DNA of 64,000 bases, taken from NCBI GenBank assembly GCA_031552145.1, contig JAVBMV010000007.1, positions 34,486 to 98,485 of the forward strand. The letters run 5' to 3'. The notes beneath the pieces were generated by a model. It did not search any database and was not told where the DNA came from. It was given only the letters and a program-made list of their open reading frames with translations. Within the stretch, counting starts at the first letter, position 1. The number at the start of each line of letters is the position of its first letter. Shown piece by piece: positions 17,896 through 24,272 of the stretch. The DNA is from Myxococcales bacterium (GTDB lineage Bacteria; Myxococcota; Myxococcia; Myxococcales; UBA5297). The translations under genes were made by a program, and so were the position numbers.

Positions 17896-18111
17896 GAGGG
17901 CGCCTCCGCGCGTCTTCACGACCTCGATCCCGAGACCTACCTGCGAGATATCTTCCGCGTCTTGGCTCATTGGCCGAAGGACCGTTGCCTCGAACTCGCC
18001 CCCAAGTACTGGGCCGCTACCCGCGCTTGTCTCGACCACGACCAGCTCGCCAACGAGTACGGGCCGCTCTCGATCCCGGCGCCGCTCCTCGGTGCGCAAA
18101 CCGCCTCGTAA
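17896..18111 (+). pseudogene. IS66-family transposase, C-terminal remnant only
   Basis: My own translation gives ...GASARLHDLDPETYLRDIFRVLAHWPKDRCLELAPKYWAATRACL...PLLGAQTAS*. This matches the conserved IS66 C-terminal motif (L.g.dP..YLrdv...i..hp..r..eL.P..W). No upstream DDE domain is present. Confidence 0.6.
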
Positions 18112-18172
18112 CGCGCGGCGCAGCAGCGCCTGCCGTGCGGCTCGGAAGTGGACCTCTGTGCAGGGTGCGGGG
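18079..18172. repeat. Left copy of a 94-bp inverted repeat (IS66 3'-end sequence); partner at 22857-22950
   Basis: By my manual alignment, the reverse complement of 18079-18172 matches 22857-22950 at 88/94 positions. Confidence 0.85.
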
Positions 18173-18585: not shown

Positions 18586-18630
18586 AGTCAGGGAGACAGG
18601 ATTTGAACCAGCGACCCCTTGGACCCGAAC
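18586..18630 (-). repeat. Displaced 3' fragment of tRNA-Pro; island-distal att direct repeat
   Basis: agtcagggagacaggatttgaaccagcgaccccttggacccgaac matches 24197-24241 at 43/45 positions. That span covers the 3' 43 nt of the intact tRNA-Pro. Confidence 0.85.
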
Positions 18631-18821
18631 GCGCCCGAGAGGCTTGGGAAGGAGTGGCAGGGGATGGCACGGTTTCGCAAGCAGCGGATATTGCTGGGGA
18701 TGCGAAGCAGGAGAAGGCAACAGGAAGAGGCCGTGCCACGCGGTCCGAGGCAGGATTTGGTCCAACTGTGGTCCAAGGGTCGCGGGCGATCCGAGGGCTG
18801 AAGACGCTGCCGGAGCTGCTC

Positions 18822-18992
18822 TTGTCGGTGGGCGAGGTGGCCGAGTCGTTGGGACTGTGTCGGGCGACGGTGTACCGGCTTTGCGAGGACGGGGAGCTGA
18901 GGCACTCGCGAGTTGGAAATTCGATCCGGATCGCAGCGGCGGACGTGAGGACTCTCCTTGAGGAGAGCGGAAAGGGAGGTGGGCGAAAGTGA
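18822..18992 (+). CDS. Excisionase-family/HTH_17 DNA-binding protein (start uncertain; a TTG at 18822 is proposed)
   Basis: ...SVGEVAESLGLCRATVYRLCEDGELRHSRVGNSIRIAAADVRTLL... It lies at the island end next to the att repeat. Confidence 0.6.
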   Translation: MSVGEVAESLGLCRATVYRLCEDGELRHSRVGNSIRIAAADVRTLLEESGKGGGRK

Positions 18993-19202
18993 TGGGCTTG
19001 GGGTTGCGGGGATGGTAGAATCCGTCCCTGACGACGTTCTCGGAGGCATCTTGCTTTCGTTGGTACCACTACTCATGTCAACCCTGACCACTTGGCGCGC
19101 AGTGGCCAGTGAGCCGTCGACCACGCACTCGGCAGAGAGAGGCCGACTCGACCTCCTAGGCAACTCCCGGATTCTCCTGGGGTGCGGAGCCGGAGCCCTA
19201 AC

Positions 19203-19223
19203 GTCGAGGGGCTCGACTTTTTT
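19203..19223 (+). terminator. Short hairpin plus T6, about 85 nt upstream of the deaminase start codon
   Basis: GTCGAG-GGG-CTCGAC followed by TTTTTT. Confidence 0.4.
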
Positions 19224-19306
19224 CTCAAGTAATCTCACTGCTGGAGAAATTTTTGGCGACCGACATTTCGCCAAGGCATTGACTACACCGGAAAGGTATT
19301 CCCCCT

Positions 19307-20878
19307 ATGTCTGCTCTGCCTGCTAGTACTATCCAGTCTTCCCGGGATTCGAGAACGACAGTAAACGAATTTCGTTCAAATCTGTTAGTGATTGGGATGG
19401 TGGGTCCAATTGGAGCAGGCGTGACAACGACCGCGCAGGCCCTAAAGACGAGGCTGAGCAATCCGGAAATTGCCCCCGACTTTAAATTTGATGTTCAAGT
19501 CATCAAGGCGAGCGATTGTATAAGGGAGTGGGCGGGCGATATTGGCGATGACAATATGGGATCGGTGGAGCGTCGGATGCGGTTTCAGGCGCTCGGGAAT
19601 AAGATGCGTTCTAAGGACCCTGCTGCCTTGGCCGCTCGTTTGTTTCTGAGAATTCATGAGCCAATAGAGACGGCGCCAAGACGAGCGTACATTCTGGATT
19701 CTCTGAAGAACCCAATAGAGATAAATTTCCTTAGAACAATATTTGGCAGTTCCTTTTTTGTTGTCGGCGTCATGTGTGCCTCCGAGCGCATTGTAGAGCG
19801 ATTGAGCGCAAAGTTTGGCGAAGAGGAAAGAAAGCGAAAGGGCGGAAAGATCGTAAGTCGAGCGTCGATAGAAGAGCTGTGTGAGCGGGACGTAAAACCA
19901 CAAGATCCTAAGGCCAAGCATTCGCAGAGGATGGCAGATGCGTTGGAGTTATCCGACTATTTTATTGACAACTCCGTTGAGCATCAACCGAGAAACAGTC
20001 TGGGGCTCATAGCAGGTGCCGAGCTTGATCGGTTCTGCTCAATAATCAGAAACGAAGACATTAGACGCCCAACGGAATCAGAAAGCGCGATGCATGCAGC
20101 ATATTCCGCGAAACACCGTAGCTCCTGTCTGTCAAGACAGGTTGGAGCCGCGCTCATAAACTCAGATGGCGATATTGTTGCCACAGGGACGAACGAGGCC
20201 CCCTGTTCGACGGGCGGCGTGTATCGAGAGGGGCGAAATTGTTGCGTCAAAAACAAGTTTGGGAGGTGCTTCGAGCGAGGTGAGGGGCAATGTCAAAGCG
20301 AAAAAATGCGAGGTGAGATTATAAATGAAGCAATAGCAGGGCTCGAGCTACCAGAAGGCAGCTCGGTGGACGCCATTAAAACGGTGTTGAATGACAGTGG
20401 AATCAAAGCTCTTACGGAGTTTGGCAGGGCTGTTCATGCCGAAATGGATGCGGTGCTTTGCGCTGCTAGGCTAGGGGTTAAGACCGGCGGAACTCGCATG
20501 TATGTCACCACATTCCCATGCCATACCTGTGCTCGCCATATCGTTGCAGCTGGTGTTTGGGAGGTTCAGTACATTGAGCCGTATTCGAAAAGCAAAGCAT
20601 TGGAGCTTCACAGTGATGCAATTGTGTGTGGGTTAGATCGCCCAGCAGATCGAAAACAGGTGCTGTTTAGGCCATTTTCCGGTGTTGCTCCTAGGTTTTA
20701 CGAGCGCGCTTTCGCGTTGCAGGCTGGCATTAAAGACGAGTCCGGATATTACAAAATCCAAGAACCCGAATGGGGAGAGAAGTGGAACTCTTTGCTCAAT
20801 GTTGACCTTCCAACATTGCGCGATGAAATCGGAAGGTCTCTAAGGGGTTGCCAGGAAGAAGAGTCGAGGGAGTCATGA
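19307..20878 (+). CDS. P-loop-kinase-like / deoxycytidylate (CDA-fold) deaminase fusion, anti-phage dCTP deaminase (DcdV/DCD) type
   Basis: The N-terminus has the Gly-rich loop LLVIGMVGPIGAGVTTTA. The C-terminus has ...SSCLSRQVGAALINSDGDIVATGTNE..., the zinc ligand motifs ...RAVHAEMDAV... (HAE) and ...TTFPCHTCARHIV... (PCxxC). GC is low, about 45-50% by eye. Confidence 0.85.
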   Translation: MSALPASTIQSSRDSRTTVNEFRSNLLVIGMVGPIGAGVTTTAQALKTRLSNPEIAPDFKFDVQVIKASDCIREWAGDIGDDNMGSVERRMRFQALGNKMRSKDPAALAARLFLRIHEPIETAPRRAYILDSLKNPIEINFLRTIFGSSFFVVGVMCASERIVERLSAKFGEEERKRKGGKIVSRASIEELCERDVKPQDPKAKHSQRMADALELSDYFIDNSVEHQPRNSLGLIAGAELDRFCSIIRNEDIRRPTESESAMHAAYSAKHRSSCLSRQVGAALINSDGDIVATGTNEAPCSTGGVYREGRNCCVKNKFGRCFERGEGQCQSEKMRGEIINEAIAGLELPEGSSVDAIKTVLNDSGIKALTEFGRAVHAEMDAVLCAARLGVKTGGTRMYVTTFPCHTCARHIVAAGVWEVQYIEPYSKSKALELHSDAIVCGLDRPADRKQVLFRPFSGVAPRFYERAFALQAGIKDESGYYKIQEPEWGEKWNSLLNVDLPTLRDEIGRSLRGCQEEESRES

Positions 20879-21795
20879 GCCGGTCTCGAACAATATTTGA
20901 ACTGATTAATGGAGAAGGCGGGGTGAATCGTGAAGGCAAGAATACGATTCATTGCAAGCCTAGCCTTTTGGAGGAACGCGACGGCCTGGAAGTATCAGGG
21001 TCTTGTGTAGATGACTCGTCCTTCACGCTCCCCACTCCTGAGTCTGAGTCGCTGAGGAACAGTTCCCGTTCGCCATTTCCGAGGACCTCCGAAGTCACAT
21101 TGTCAGAGAAGGCCGCATGGTGCTCAGGGGGGGGGCTAAAAGCGCCGGAAGAATGCCCCTGGTCCAATGACCTCGTGACAATAGCCTCGGTGTCCGTGGA
21201 CGGCAATAGCCTACCTCCGCGATTTGGCAAAGACCTAAGTTTGGATCGCGCTTTGCCGCCAGGTGTTACAATGCTTCCTGTGCCTGCTCTAGCTCAACCA
21301 AAAGTTGCTCCTGAATTGAGGCAGGGGCATTTATTTCCTGAGTATTTTATAAACCGGGCGTGGGTTGTGTTTGCTCCCAGTATGCGTGGGCATGACATTT
21401 TTAGCCTGTTCGAGCGTGACGAGACTGCTCATGTGTTTGACGTTAGGGTGCTTCGACGATTTGATTTTGCTCCTTGGCGGAGGGAAAACTGGGAGAAGAT
21501 TTCCGAGGATTTCAAAATTAAATACTACGGCGTTGTGGGCAGAGAAAAGGCCCGCGATTGGAACGACCGATGGCTCCTGTCTCAAGAAGCAAGGGGGCTC
21601 TTGTCGAAATTGTTGAGCGATGTGAAGACAGCGCGATCTGTTGTGTTTTTGGTGGACGACCGCTATGACTTCAGGATTGCGAGGCTTCTTCTTCCCGGCG
21701 CGCTGCCTCCGCCCCCTCCTTTGTGCAGATGGGAGGTCCTGTCAGTTGAATCGCCCGAGGATTTGGAGCGCACCATGTCCTTGTATTTGCGATGA
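20875..21795 (+). CDS. Uncharacterised protein translationally coupled to the deaminase (S/P/E-rich N-terminal half plus a ~170-aa C-terminal domain)
   Basis: The ATG at 20875 overlaps the deaminase TGA (gtcATGAgc). An alternative TTG at 20848 would give a 31-nt overlap. The C-terminal domain reads ...FINRAWVVFAPSMRGHDIFSLFERDETAHVFDVRVLRRFDFAPWRRENWEKISEDFKIKYYGVVGREKARDW... I do not recognise a family. Confidence 0.6.
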   Translation: MSRSRTIFELINGEGGVNREGKNTIHCKPSLLEERDGLEVSGSCVDDSSFTLPTPESESLRNSSRSPFPRTSEVTLSEKAAWCSGGGLKAPEECPWSNDLVTIASVSVDGNSLPPRFGKDLSLDRALPPGVTMLPVPALAQPKVAPELRQGHLFPEYFINRAWVVFAPSMRGHDIFSLFERDETAHVFDVRVLRRFDFAPWRRENWEKISEDFKIKYYGVVGREKARDWNDRWLLSQEARGLLSKLLSDVKTARSVVFLVDDRYDFRIARLLLPGALPPPPPLCRWEVLSVESPEDLERTMSLYLR

Positions 21796-22024
21796 AAGCA
21801 CGATGCTTCTCCGCGTTGCTTTGCTATGTTGAATGGTTGAATCAAGTGGCGAGGTTTCGACGGAGAGCGCTGGCCGTTCTGGCCCGGTTGTCCTCGTCGC
21901 GGGAGTGGCGATCTCGGGGGATCACTAACCCGGGCCAAAGGACCTTGATGAGGTCCGATGGATGCGACGTTGACCGTAAATAACCACGGCCGATGGATCG
22001 AGACTCCTGTCAAAATGGTATTAG

Positions 22025-22684
22025 TCACGCAAATGTGTCGCATGTGGGGCAGTAGAAGTTCCCTCGATGTTTTGTCTTTAGCGGTGTTTTGCTCATTGGG
22101 CCACAGCAGTTGCTGCATCGGGGAGGCGGCAAATATCTGGACGTAAGGTTTCCGTCGTACGGCTTTGTATTTTCGCCTGCTTGTTTTGATGGGGCGGGCC
22201 CCTTCAGTAACGACGGAAGGATTTCGAGAAATTCATCACGTCGTTCGCTCCAACGCGCAGTGGGAAGCGGCTTCGGAACCGGCAGGCGCTCAGTGATAGC
22301 GTAGTGGAGGTCATCAAGACCACTGTTCGTCTCGATCTTTAATGCTTGCATGCCTGCGAGCACCGCTTTCATATTCGAATAACTTACTGGAGGAACGATT
22401 ACGGGGATGAAATCTTTCGATGCAAACCAGGCGCCCCCAAGCTCGCACATGCAGAATGGGCTTTGGTAAAAGTCGTCAGACACGAGTGCGAGGACGAGCG
22501 TGGAGTCCCCCAGAGTCTCCTTGATGTACGACTTGAAGTCCTTGCCCGGCGGGATCCCCTGTCCTTTCGTAGACGAGCAAAATATTTCGCTCGGGGGGAC
22601 GCCAATTCCGCCTTCCAGCAACTTGGTGAATTCGGTCACGAGACGTTTGTCTTCCGACGCGTGACTGATGAAGAGCTTCGCCAT
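22025..22684 (-). CDS. TIR-domain protein with a C-terminal CxxC...CxxC zinc ribbon
   Basis: The ATG at 22684 is preceded by AGGAGG and gives MAKLFISHASEDKRLV... ...DDFYQSPFCMCELGGAW... contains the conserved TIR Glu. The C-terminus reads ...RCSNCCGPMSK...FYCPTCDTFA. An extended -10 (TGATATGAT) lies at 22717-22725 on the minus strand. Confidence 0.8.
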   Translation of the reverse strand: MAKLFISHASEDKRLVTEFTKLLEGGIGVPPSEIFCSSTKGQGIPPGKDFKSYIKETLGDSTLVLALVSDDFYQSPFCMCELGGAWFASKDFIPVIVPPVSYSNMKAVLAGMQALKIETNSGLDDLHYAITERLPVPKPLPTARWSERRDEFLEILPSLLKGPAPSKQAGENTKPYDGNLTSRYLPPPRCSNCCGPMSKTPLKTKHRGNFYCPTCDTFA

Positions 22685-22856: not shown

Positions 22857-22950
22857 CCCCGCACCCTGCACAGAGGTCCACCTTCGAGCCGCACGGCAGG
22901 CGCTGCTGCGCCGCGCGCTACGAGGCAATTTGCGCGCCGAGGAGCGGCGC
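22857..22950. repeat. Right copy of the 94-bp inverted repeat (IS66 3' end: last ~10 codons ...APLLGAQIAS* on the minus strand plus downstream sequence)
   Basis: Matches the reverse complement of 18079-18172 at 88/94 positions. Confidence 0.85.
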
Positions 22951-23041: not shown

Positions 23042-24082
23042 TTACGGCTCCTCCTCCCTCTTCTTGGGGCGCTTCGACTCGATGCGCTTCACCTCAGCCT
23101 CGAAGTCGCTCTCGAACTCACGGTCCTGGCGCACGCGAAACTTGTCGTACTGCTCCTCGGCGAGGCGCTTGGCCACCTCCGCGGAGACCTTGCCGGCGTT
23201 CACGAGCACCTCGTACTCGTTGAACTGCAGGAACGCGTCCAGCTTCGCGACCCAGTTCGCCATCTTCATCGGGATCTGCCGCGCGGCCTGGTTCTCGGCG
23301 TAGTCGAGGTACATCGACACGATGCGCTCGAGCCCCTTGATCTCGCGCTCGATCAGGTAGTTCTTGGCGACGCTGACGTCGCTCTTGAGGATCTTCCCCT
23401 TGGGTGCGTTCTTCCACGTTGTGAGCCCCATCGAGGGCTTCTCGGCGTCAGCGCGCTCGGCGATCAGCTCCGCGGCGGTCTTGCCCGTGACCGCCCAGTG
23501 CAGCTTGTTCTGCACCGTCTTGAAGAACGTCTGCGTCGTCTCGGCCTGCTTGTCGTAGTCGACGCTGCACTGCTCGTAGATGTCGGTGATCTTCAGGTAG
23601 AACCGCCGCTCGCTGGCGCGGATCTCCCGGATCCGCTCGAGCAACTCGTCAAAGTAGTCCCTGCCGAAGCGCTTGTTCAGCTTGAGCCGCTCGTCGTCGA
23701 GGACGTAGCCCTTGACGATGAACTCGCGCAGTGTCTGGGTCGCCCATATGCGGAACTGGGTGGCCTGCGTGCTGTTGACGCGGTAGCCAACCGAGATGAT
23801 CGCGTCGAGATTGTAGAACTCGATCTCGCGCCTAACATCGCGATTTCCCTCGCGTTGAACCCTCCAAATTCTTTGGAGAGTTGCCTCCGGGTTCAGCTCC
23901 CCCGAGGCGTAGACCTCCTTCAGATGGTAGCTGACGGTGCGGATGTCGACGCCGAACAGCTCGGCCATGCGCCGCTGGTCGAGCCAGAAGGTCTCGGACT
24001 CGTAGAGCACCTCGACGCGCACGGCGTCATCGGCGGTGCGGTAGAGGATCAGCTCGCCTTCCTGCGAGGTCTGGTCGGTCAT
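23042..24082 (-). CDS. RhuM-family (virulence/Fic-related) protein
   Basis: The internal ATG at 24082 gives MTDQTSQEGELILYRTADDAVRVEVLYESETFWLDQRRMAELFGVDIRTVSYHLKEVY...NLDAIISVGYRVNSTQATQFRIWATQTLREFIVKGYVLDDERLK.... The longer track ORF reads through the tRNA and is not real. Confidence 0.85.
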   Translation of the reverse strand: MTDQTSQEGELILYRTADDAVRVEVLYESETFWLDQRRMAELFGVDIRTVSYHLKEVYASGELNPEATLQRIWRVQREGNRDVRREIEFYNLDAIISVGYRVNSTQATQFRIWATQTLREFIVKGYVLDDERLKLNKRFGRDYFDELLERIREIRASERRFYLKITDIYEQCSVDYDKQAETTQTFFKTVQNKLHWAVTGKTAAELIAERADAEKPSMGLTTWKNAPKGKILKSDVSVAKNYLIEREIKGLERIVSMYLDYAENQAARQIPMKMANWVAKLDAFLQFNEYEVLVNAGKVSAEVAKRLAEEQYDKFRVRQDREFESDFEAEVKRIESKRPKKREEEP

Positions 24083-24196: not shown

Positions 24197-24241
24197 AGTC
24201 GGGGAGACAGGATTTGAACCTGCGACCCCTTGGACCCGAAC
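24197..24241 (-). repeat. tRNA-proximal att direct repeat (within tRNA-Pro)
   Basis: Identical to 18586-18630 at 43/45 positions. Confidence 0.85.
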
Positions 24242-24272
24242 CAAGTGCTCTACCAGGCTGAGCCACTCCCCG
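24199..24272 (-). tRNA. tRNA-Pro (anticodon CGG), CCA not encoded
   Basis: The reverse complement folds as a cloverleaf: CGGGGAG-TG-GCTC-AGCCTGGTA-GAGC-A-CTTGG-TTCGGGT-CCAAG-GGGTC-GCAGG-TTCAAAT-CCTGT-CTCCCCG-A. Anticodon-loop positions 34-36 are CGG. Confidence 0.9.

Follow-up and report, generated by a model that had tools for sequence, protein, structure and literature searches.

A translationally coupled, putatively DUF488-like partner of a predicted AvcD-type anti-phage deaminase, beside a convergent TIR gene on a myxococcal tRNA-Pro island

The anti-phage deaminases described to date deplete the deoxycytidine nucleotides of the infected cell. In the AvcID (DcdV-DifV) systems of Vibrio cholerae VSP-1 and their enterobacterial homologues, a protein of ~530 amino acids (aa) that joins a P-loop-kinase-like domain to a zinc deaminase domain deaminates dCTP and dCMP on infection; this AvcD protein is toxic, and the labile AvcI RNA restrains it until transcription is shut off and the inhibitor disappears (PMC10511110). 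AvcI is encoded 5' of the deaminase gene and in the same orientation (PMC10511110; bioRxiv 10.1101/2021.03.31.437871), and DifV likewise directly precedes dcdV on the 5' side, with the same orientation (bioRxiv 10.1101/2021.03.31.437871). The defensive DCD enzymes of Tal et al., represented by the PADLOC dCTPase model and NCBIfam NF041025, were presented as a single gene, in a paper whose text mentions no partner; mutations in the glycine-rich loop motif of the model DCD abolish defence, and both domains are essential (bioRxiv 10.1101/2021.04.26.441389). In databases the defensive dCTP deaminase figures as a one-gene system, and in the literature as a gene with a small RNA; its trigger is only partly understood. 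Here, we analyzed a 64,000-nucleotide (nt) stretch of DNA from a Myxococcales bacterium (GenBank assembly GCA_031552145.1, contig JAVBMV010000007.1, positions 34,486 to 98,485; hereafter the window, whose coordinates we use throughout). In it, three open reading frames (ORFs) lie side by side on a small tRNA-Pro island: a deaminase gene (ORF1), a gene that matches no named family (ORF2) and a TIR gene (ORF3). A preliminary description of this DNA had proposed that the three might form one unit. We consider it probable that they instead represent two independent defence modules, a deaminase-partner operon and a convergent TIR gene.

The protein encoded by ORF1 is predicted to be a divergent, full-length anti-phage dCTP deaminase of the AvcD/DCD type with intact catalytic residues. 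It joins a P-loop-kinase-like domain at the N-terminus to a zinc cytidine deaminase domain at the C-terminus, falls into the same hidden Markov model (HMM) family as the defensive DCDs and carries the same essential motifs in both domains. In an alignment of 127 family members, the kinase-like glycine-rich loop (V32-G33-x-x-G36-x-G38) and the zinc-deaminase motifs (H377-A-E379 and P404-C405-x-x-C408) all occupy invariant columns. These intact motifs and the PADLOC dCTPase match (Table 1) agree with the preliminary description, which had called ORF1 a nucleotide-depleting enzyme of the anti-phage type. Its nearest homologues, several of which carry the NCBI name anti-phage dCTP deaminase, are just ~40% identical to it, a distance that sets it apart from AvcD itself; unlike the defensive DCDs, ORF1 also scores under the 400-bit equivalog cut-off of NF041025 ("anti-phage dCTP deaminase") at 375.6 bits. 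A sequence search for a solved structure of the family found none and matched plain dCMP deaminases only.

ORF1 and ORF2 form a translationally coupled two-gene operon (Table 1). ORF2 has no match in Pfam, NCBIfam, PHROGs or PADLOC, and a word-indexed protein search with ORF2 alone returned nothing. An exhaustive HMMER search recovered three small proteins (132-179 aa) that resemble residues ~125-294, and a profile built from these three proteins yielded five further homologues. For each of these eight distinct homologues, the gene directly upstream encodes a ~540-aa dCMP_cyt_deam_1 protein. The junction is an overlap or a gap of a few nt at six of seven other pair loci compared; at the seventh (L005) the called gap is 116 nt, and the true start of the partner gene probably lies upstream of the called one. 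A ninth pair locus (L015) came from a Magnetococcales genome, and a subgroup alignment of the partner family found nothing in metagenomes. We also ran the partner profile over 401 genomes of the window's own phylum (the phylum sample). Nine genomes matched, and in every one the partner gene stood immediately behind a full-length anti-phage deaminase, a class with about 27 members in this sample, nine of which carry the partner. Among 351 Nitrospirota genomes, both strong partner matches lie behind a deaminase, and three sampled deaminase homologues (P0004, P0017 and P0094; one from Nitrospira, one from Bradyrhizobium) all have the domain downstream. Taken together, the partner family occupies more than 20 loci in at least three phyla and in metagenomes, each time with an AvcD-type deaminase gene directly upstream. 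Deaminase distances and partner distances, taken pair by pair, are closely correlated (Mantel r = 0.895; 0 of 5,000 permutations reached that value). Since co-divergence is expected for any two co-inherited genes, this correlation identifies the pair as a stable unit and is not proof of an interaction. The preliminary description had left either enzyme as a candidate associate of the product of ORF2. The gene order at more than 20 loci bears out the link to the deaminase and not the one to the TIR protein, and it supports the view that the ORF2 product is dedicated to a single enzyme, the deaminase, as its partner.

The slot behind the deaminase is not always filled by a relative of ORF2. Sixteen deaminase loci of the phylum sample that lack an ORF2-like partner (L025-L028, L030-L035, L037-L039, L041, L042 and L053) have an ORF of ~60 aa in this position, right after or overlapping the deaminase stop codon; its product carries a WP[DEQA]W[KMLR] motif and has no Pfam match. 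A relative from the same family as the window's bacterium retains the partner gene downstream of a deaminase gene broken into two frames (G268:C11:1177899-1179923), and a second, intact deaminase without a partner is encoded elsewhere in that genome. A C-terminal "SY.ELE" tail, considered as a marker of partner-bearing deaminases, was rejected as it occurs family-wide. That a sizeable branch of the deaminases always comes with a co-translated partner, while other branches have alternative small proteins in the same slot, suggests a layer of control that has gone unrecognized. The deaminase belongs, as a divergent member, to a known family; the coupled DUF488-like partner described below is new to the literature searched: we found no account there of such a partner or of its fusions to SPARTA proteins, and no PADLOC model matches it.

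The family resemblance of ORF2 lies in its C-terminal domain. For the 125-residue N-terminal extension, the word-indexed and HMMER searches with ORF2 found no homologue; its reading frame contains 0 stop codons, compared with 9 in each of the other forward frames. We considered the extension as a fused copy of the ~60-aa WPxW protein and rejected this, as there was no match. A single-sequence AlphaFold prediction of ORF2 alone reached a predicted local distance difference test score (pLDDT) of 39; supplied with the family alignment, AlphaFold returned a model of five beta-alpha units with a pLDDT of 74 and a predicted template-modelling (TM) score of 0.69. Foldseek comparison of the alignment-based model with the PDB and with the viral models of BFVD gave nothing significant, the best matches being generic P-loop kinases (E ~0.02, TM score up to 0.45), and the partner profile had no match among PDB sequences. 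Across 16 aligned partners, D189, R191, R203, L277 and W286 (ORF2 numbering) are invariant. At the end of strand 2 the family keeps a D-x-R motif; it also retains an invariant arginine, a tyrosine (Y217) and a C-terminal tryptophan.

Profile comparison connects this domain to DUF488. Neither ORF2 nor the partners from two other genomes (G213 and G172) matched PF04343 directly, even at E values up to 1. Two proteins from the slot behind a deaminase do pass the Pfam DUF488 threshold (L029:2933-3616 in G185, 39.3 bits; L043:2200-2868 in G115, 32.5 bits), and they also match the partner HMM weakly, bridging the ORF2 family to DUF488. Aligned with hhalign, the partner family matched these two slot proteins with 95.1% probability (E = 3.3e-8), the two together with canonical DUF488 proteins with 96.0% (E = 4.2e-9), and two canonical DUF488 proteins alone with 25.5% (E = 7.5e-4). 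The partner HMM in turn weakly recovers ten canonical DUF488 proteins. Through the bridging members, the ORF2 domain aligns with DUF488 (PF04343, including the "inactive DUF488-N3" PF22752) and has in common with it a beta-strand D-[VL]-R-x-x-P motif and a downstream Y/G motif. It differs in having no C-x-E...C-H-R motif, which is present in canonical DUF488 proteins and in 0 of the 16 aligned partners, and in having QxxLFP and LxPxPxxxW motifs of its own. Because D-x-R is kept and C-x-E...C-H-R is lost, the profiles and the model identify the partner as a putative degenerate DUF488-like domain.

This kinship raises the alternative that ORF2 is an enzyme or a second effector that, alongside deamination or following it, would act on nucleotides or nucleic acid in the manner of a working DUF488 protein. 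The two bona fide DUF488 proteins, whose C..CHR motif is included, occur in the same slot, and the invariant D-x-R, arginine and tyrosine residues could bind a phosphorylated ligand. The ORF2 family itself has nevertheless lost the C-terminal Cys/His/Arg motif, and loss of activity has a precedent in the subclade that Pfam names "inactive". There is, moreover, no established function of DUF488 in the literature searched, where we found no paper that assigns one. We therefore regard an enzymatic role as quite unlikely. For DUF488, a widespread domain, the deaminase loci offer a first concrete functional context.

A second line of evidence on the partner domain comes from loci in which it is part of a larger protein. 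In Bradyrhizobium sp. AZCC 2289 (L070:3001-7596), the stop codon of the deaminase gene overlaps the start of a gene for a 656-aa protein in which the partner domain (residues 6-173, E = 5.5e-33) is followed by a TIR-APAZ protein (PADLOC Aga_TIR-PNTD1-PNTD2, 2.3e-129), and the next gene encodes a short pAgo (PADLOC pAgo_I, 2.8e-125). By these matches, the locus is a predicted SPARTA system with the partner domain at the N-terminus of its TIR-APAZ component. The plasmid pRGM101a of Rhizobium gallicum (L091:2935-7898, NZ_CP092345.1) has the same layout of a deaminase and a partner::TIR-APAZ fusion; here the deaminase sequence is broken into two frames, a 531-aa ORF follows the fusion gene, and the locus probably qualifies as SPARTA as well. 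A metagenomic protein of 302 aa (P0131), encoded behind a deaminase, combines the partner domain with a TIR domain and is probably a fusion of the same type. These loci suggest that a physical link can exist between two immune mechanisms that both deplete nucleotides.

How might the pair work? By homology to the characterized family, ORF1 would, in an infected cell, deaminate dCTP and dCMP to deoxyuridine nucleotides and thereby starve phage DNA synthesis. ORF2 would bind the deaminase as a non-catalytic subunit, perhaps together with a nucleotide-like ligand held by the D-x-R/R/Y cluster at the strand ends, and would set when the deaminase fires. We give roughly even chances to this role of ORF2, as a regulator or docking subunit with no catalysis of its own. 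The fusion of the domain to the N-terminus of SPARTA TIR-APAZ proteins in other bacteria accords with docking or coupling. More tentatively, and with the odds clearly against it, the partner may be a transferable domain for docking and regulation that wires AvcD-type deaminases to different immune sensors. Standing alone, the domain would control the firing of the deaminase; as part of a SPARTA TIR-APAZ protein it would link the sensing of DNA by guides to a simultaneous loss of dCTP and NAD+; and in the window the 125-residue extension of ORF2 would serve as a further sensor head.

The restraint of AvcD by a labile inhibitor that disappears after transcription shut-off (PMC10511110) suggests a different role. 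ORF2 could be a labile, type II-like protein antitoxin that replaces or supplements AvcI and inhibits the deaminase until the shut-off imposed by a phage lets ORF2 decay. Toxin-antitoxin pairs typically show tight translational coupling and co-diverge, and the slot behind the deaminase is occupied by alternative small proteins at other loci. Against such a role, the domain keeps a conserved, pocket-like cluster of residues, and its fusion to a large sensor-effector, SPARTA TIR-APAZ, at three loci would be odd for a disposable antitoxin. In addition, the 314-nt region 5' of ORF1, with its terminator-like hairpin (Table 1), leaves room for an AvcI-like RNA. AvcID loci likewise have an untranslated stretch with a terminator-like hairpin 5' of the deaminase in the same orientation, and by analogy the 314-nt stretch is where a putative AvcI/DifV-like RNA would lie. 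An Rfam scan of this region gave no match, and its predicted fold is no better than that of shuffled sequences (z-score -0.65). What separates the window from AvcID is the kind of regulator: that of AvcID is an upstream small RNA, the papers describing no protein partner (PMC10511110; bioRxiv 10.1101/2021.03.31.437871), whereas the window has a conserved, coupled downstream protein. On balance, we see an antitoxin as possible and less probable than a regulatory or docking subunit.

Does the TIR gene belong to the same system? All three ORFs named by the preliminary description are present and intact, and their shared atypical base composition was confirmed: the GC contents of ORF1, ORF2 and ORF3 are 0.506, ~0.53 and 0.536, compared with 0.645 for the window, in a trough of 0.51-0.56 at 19-23 kb; further rightward values run from 0.65 to 0.73 (right flank ~0.69). 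GC at third codon positions (GC3) is not uniform, being 0.51 and 0.55 for the deaminase-partner pair and 0.62-0.65 for the TIR gene. On a reading of the three as one system, ORF2 would sense infection and switch on the depletion of both dCTP and NAD+. Adjacency, common low GC content and a single island speak for it, as do loci elsewhere in which the protein behind the deaminase joins the partner domain to a TIR protein, which means that wiring of deaminase to TIR through this domain exists. Several observations lead us to think it very improbable all the same. First, the TIR gene lies on the opposite strand, convergent with the pair and not transcribed together with it. Second, the trio does not recur: in the eight other pair-bearing genomes of the phylum sample no TIR_2 gene comes closer than 100 kb to the pair, three of these eight lack TIR_2 genes altogether, and no metagenomic pair locus with flanking sequence has such a gene beside the pair. 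Third, relatives of the window's TIR protein occur without the deaminase. Six of the eight phylum genomes that encode such relatives have no anti-phage deaminase, and in the other two it lies megabases away. Fourth, the TIR domains of the partner fusions are of the SPARTA type and only 22% identical to that of the window (E = 0.015), which is SpbK-like and belongs to another group; no Aga_TIR or pAgo model matches any protein of the window, which has neither an APAZ domain nor a pAgo. The preliminary description had named in advance, as what would speak against a three-gene unit, that homologues of the three genes never co-occur elsewhere, and at the loci compared here they did not. It had further stated that a nucleotide-depleting deaminase and a TIR NADase co-acquired as one cassette were not known as a defined system. 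Such a combination does exist, with SPARTA TIR-APAZ proteins joined to the partner domain, and was not found with the TIR type of the window. As a caution for annotation, neighbouring defence genes on one island need not form one system.

ORF3 does encode a TIR protein, as the preliminary description had it: the TIR_2 domain is recognized and the predicted catalytic glutamate is kept (Table 1). Its closest named or solved relative is SpbK, the TIR abortive-infection protein of ICEBs1 (PADLOC spbK, 9e-31; PDB 9phb, 2.9e-14), with which it has in common the catalytic glutamate and a single-gene setting on a mobile element. The order of parts differs. In SpbK the TIR domain is C-terminal, behind a sensor domain, whereas in ORF3 it is N-terminal and followed by a 54-residue zinc-ribbon tail; residues 5-160 of ORF3 align to positions 147-304 of the 308-position spbK model. 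Relatives of ORF3 were found in eight phylum genomes, in metagenomes and on plasmids of Agrobacterium, Mesorhizobium and Enterococcus. They are 30-60% identical to ORF3 and alignable over residues 1 to ~165 only, and all of them conserve the CMCELGG glutamate. These relatives are ~340 aa long, next to which ORF3 is atypically short, and consist of a TIR domain, a coiled coil and a C-terminal domain that ends in FW(D/E)RHL. None of the relatives found covers the zinc-ribbon tail of ORF3, which also differs from the TIR part in codon-position GC. A frameshifted remnant of the coiled coil and C-terminal domain was looked for in the island, and none is present. Judged by its domains, ORF3 is predicted to work as a one-protein abortive-infection effector of the NADase type, within the SpbK-like group of TIR proteins; the activity of ORF3 is uncertain because the usual coiled-coil and C-terminal sensor region is replaced by the unique zinc-ribbon tail. 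With respect to Thoeris, window proteins gave only weak matches to ThsB (E = 0.004), and general scans of the island found no ThsA-like gene between its boundaries, no genome-wide search for ThsA having been made. Relatives of ORF3 occur on plasmids as well as chromosomes of several phyla (L061-L068, L072 and L078), and on pAt2 of Agrobacterium pusense the relative adjoins a KAP NTPase.

Several points weigh against a working deaminase-partner operon that is independent of the TIR gene. We infer the binding of ORF2 to ORF1 from gene order alone, and the fold assignment of ORF2 rests on sequence profiles because the structural searches gave no significant match. The ORF2 copy is atypical, with its relative-free extension of 125 residues and deviations at five positions where at least 80% of family members agree, and ORF1 sits on a very long branch of the 127-member tree (1.74 compared with a median of 0.2). 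Because of these two features, the local pair could work differently from the others or be decaying. The three ORFs also share low GC content within 3.4 kb, and it is possible that all three were acquired together and that there is functional cross-talk with the TIR protein. Taken to its end, this line of argument makes the local genes decaying relics, with a pair too divergent and a TIR gene too truncated to defend. The long branch, the score of ORF1 under the NF041025 cut-off, the deviating positions of ORF2, a TIR protein without the coiled coil and C-terminal domain of its family and an island without an integrase would all fit. Yet the three frames are all intact, every catalytic and invariant residue is kept, and the extension of ORF2 is open in its own frame only. 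The low GC content in a high-GC host, moreover, suggests that the DNA came in recently from a lineage not yet sampled, and such an origin would account for the long branches too. We hence consider decay unlikely and retain the reading of two separate defence modules.

The island that carries them spans 5.6 kb and is delimited by 45-nt direct repeats of the tRNA-Pro 3' end (18586-18630 and 24197-24241), which are 96% identical and lie 5,611 nt apart. The tRNA-Pro(CGG) gene at its right-hand end is the integration target of the island, and throughout the family this gene remains in synteny with its right-flank neighbour. In left-to-right order, the island contains the HTH_17 gene, the 314-nt non-coding stretch, ORF1 and ORF2 on the forward strand, ORF3 on the reverse strand, the inverted-repeat region and the RhuM/PDC-S05 gene (Table 1). 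No integrase is present among the ORFs between the repeats.

Table 1. Features of the tRNA-Pro island, in window coordinates
Feature	Position	Strand	Evidence and remarks
Left island boundary	18586..18630	.	att-like 45-nt direct repeat of tRNA-Pro 3' end; repeat of 24197-24241
HTH_17 (Xis/AlpA-like) gene	18819..18992	+	Pfam HTH_17 3.7e-14, residues 73-121 of ORF; GC 0.64
Non-coding stretch 5' of deaminase gene, 314 nt	18993..19306	+	GC-rich hairpin and T6 (terminator-like) at 19193-19225
ORF1, predicted dCTP deaminase, 523 aa	19307-20878	+	dCMP_cyt_deam_1 (Pfam) 1.9e-16; PADLOC dCTPase 1.5e-139, residues 15-513
ORF2, putative partner, 306 aa	20875-21795	+	ATG overlaps ORF1 stop (ATGA); GAGGGAG Shine-Dalgarno sequence upstream
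ORF2 N-terminal extension, residues 1-125	20875..21249	+	Confined to this locus; predicted disordered, pLDDT <50
ORF2 C-terminal domain, residues 126-306	21250..21795	+	Deaminase-partner family; putative degenerate DUF488-like alpha/beta domain
ORF3, 219 aa	22025-22684	-	TIR_2 5e-11; convergent with ORF1-ORF2
ORF3 C-terminal tail, residues 166-219	22025..22189	-	CxxC-x16-CxxC, zinc-ribbon-like
ORF3 TIR domain and linker, residues 1-165	22190..22684	-	Predicted catalytic Glu in CMCELGG; TIR_2
Inverted-repeat arm, 94 nt	22857..22950	.	94% complementary to other arm, 18079-18172
RhuM-family/PADLOC PDC-S05 gene	23042..24082	-	Virulence_RhuM 6.7e-114; PDC-S05 2e-156; GC 0.62, GC3 0.93
tRNA-Pro(CGG)	24198..24272	-	ARAGORN; Rfam tRNA 64 bits; 3' part is the right-hand repeat

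The start of the HTH_17 gene is uncertain, its ORF spanning 18603-18992. The preliminary description had the three ORFs as the only intact cargo, and this is nearly right; the island also holds the RhuM/PDC-S05 gene, in addition to the Xis-like HTH_17 gene. The RhuM/PDC-S05 gene, whose codon GC resembles that of the host, is a candidate defence gene in its own right. Since the low-GC deaminase pair and TIR gene are mixed with this gene of host-like GC3, the content of the island is a mosaic. Of the two arms of the 94-nt inverted repeat, the one at 18079-18172 lies outside the left att-like repeat and the one at 22857-22950 inside the island, and a few short related fragments occur at two further places in the genome.

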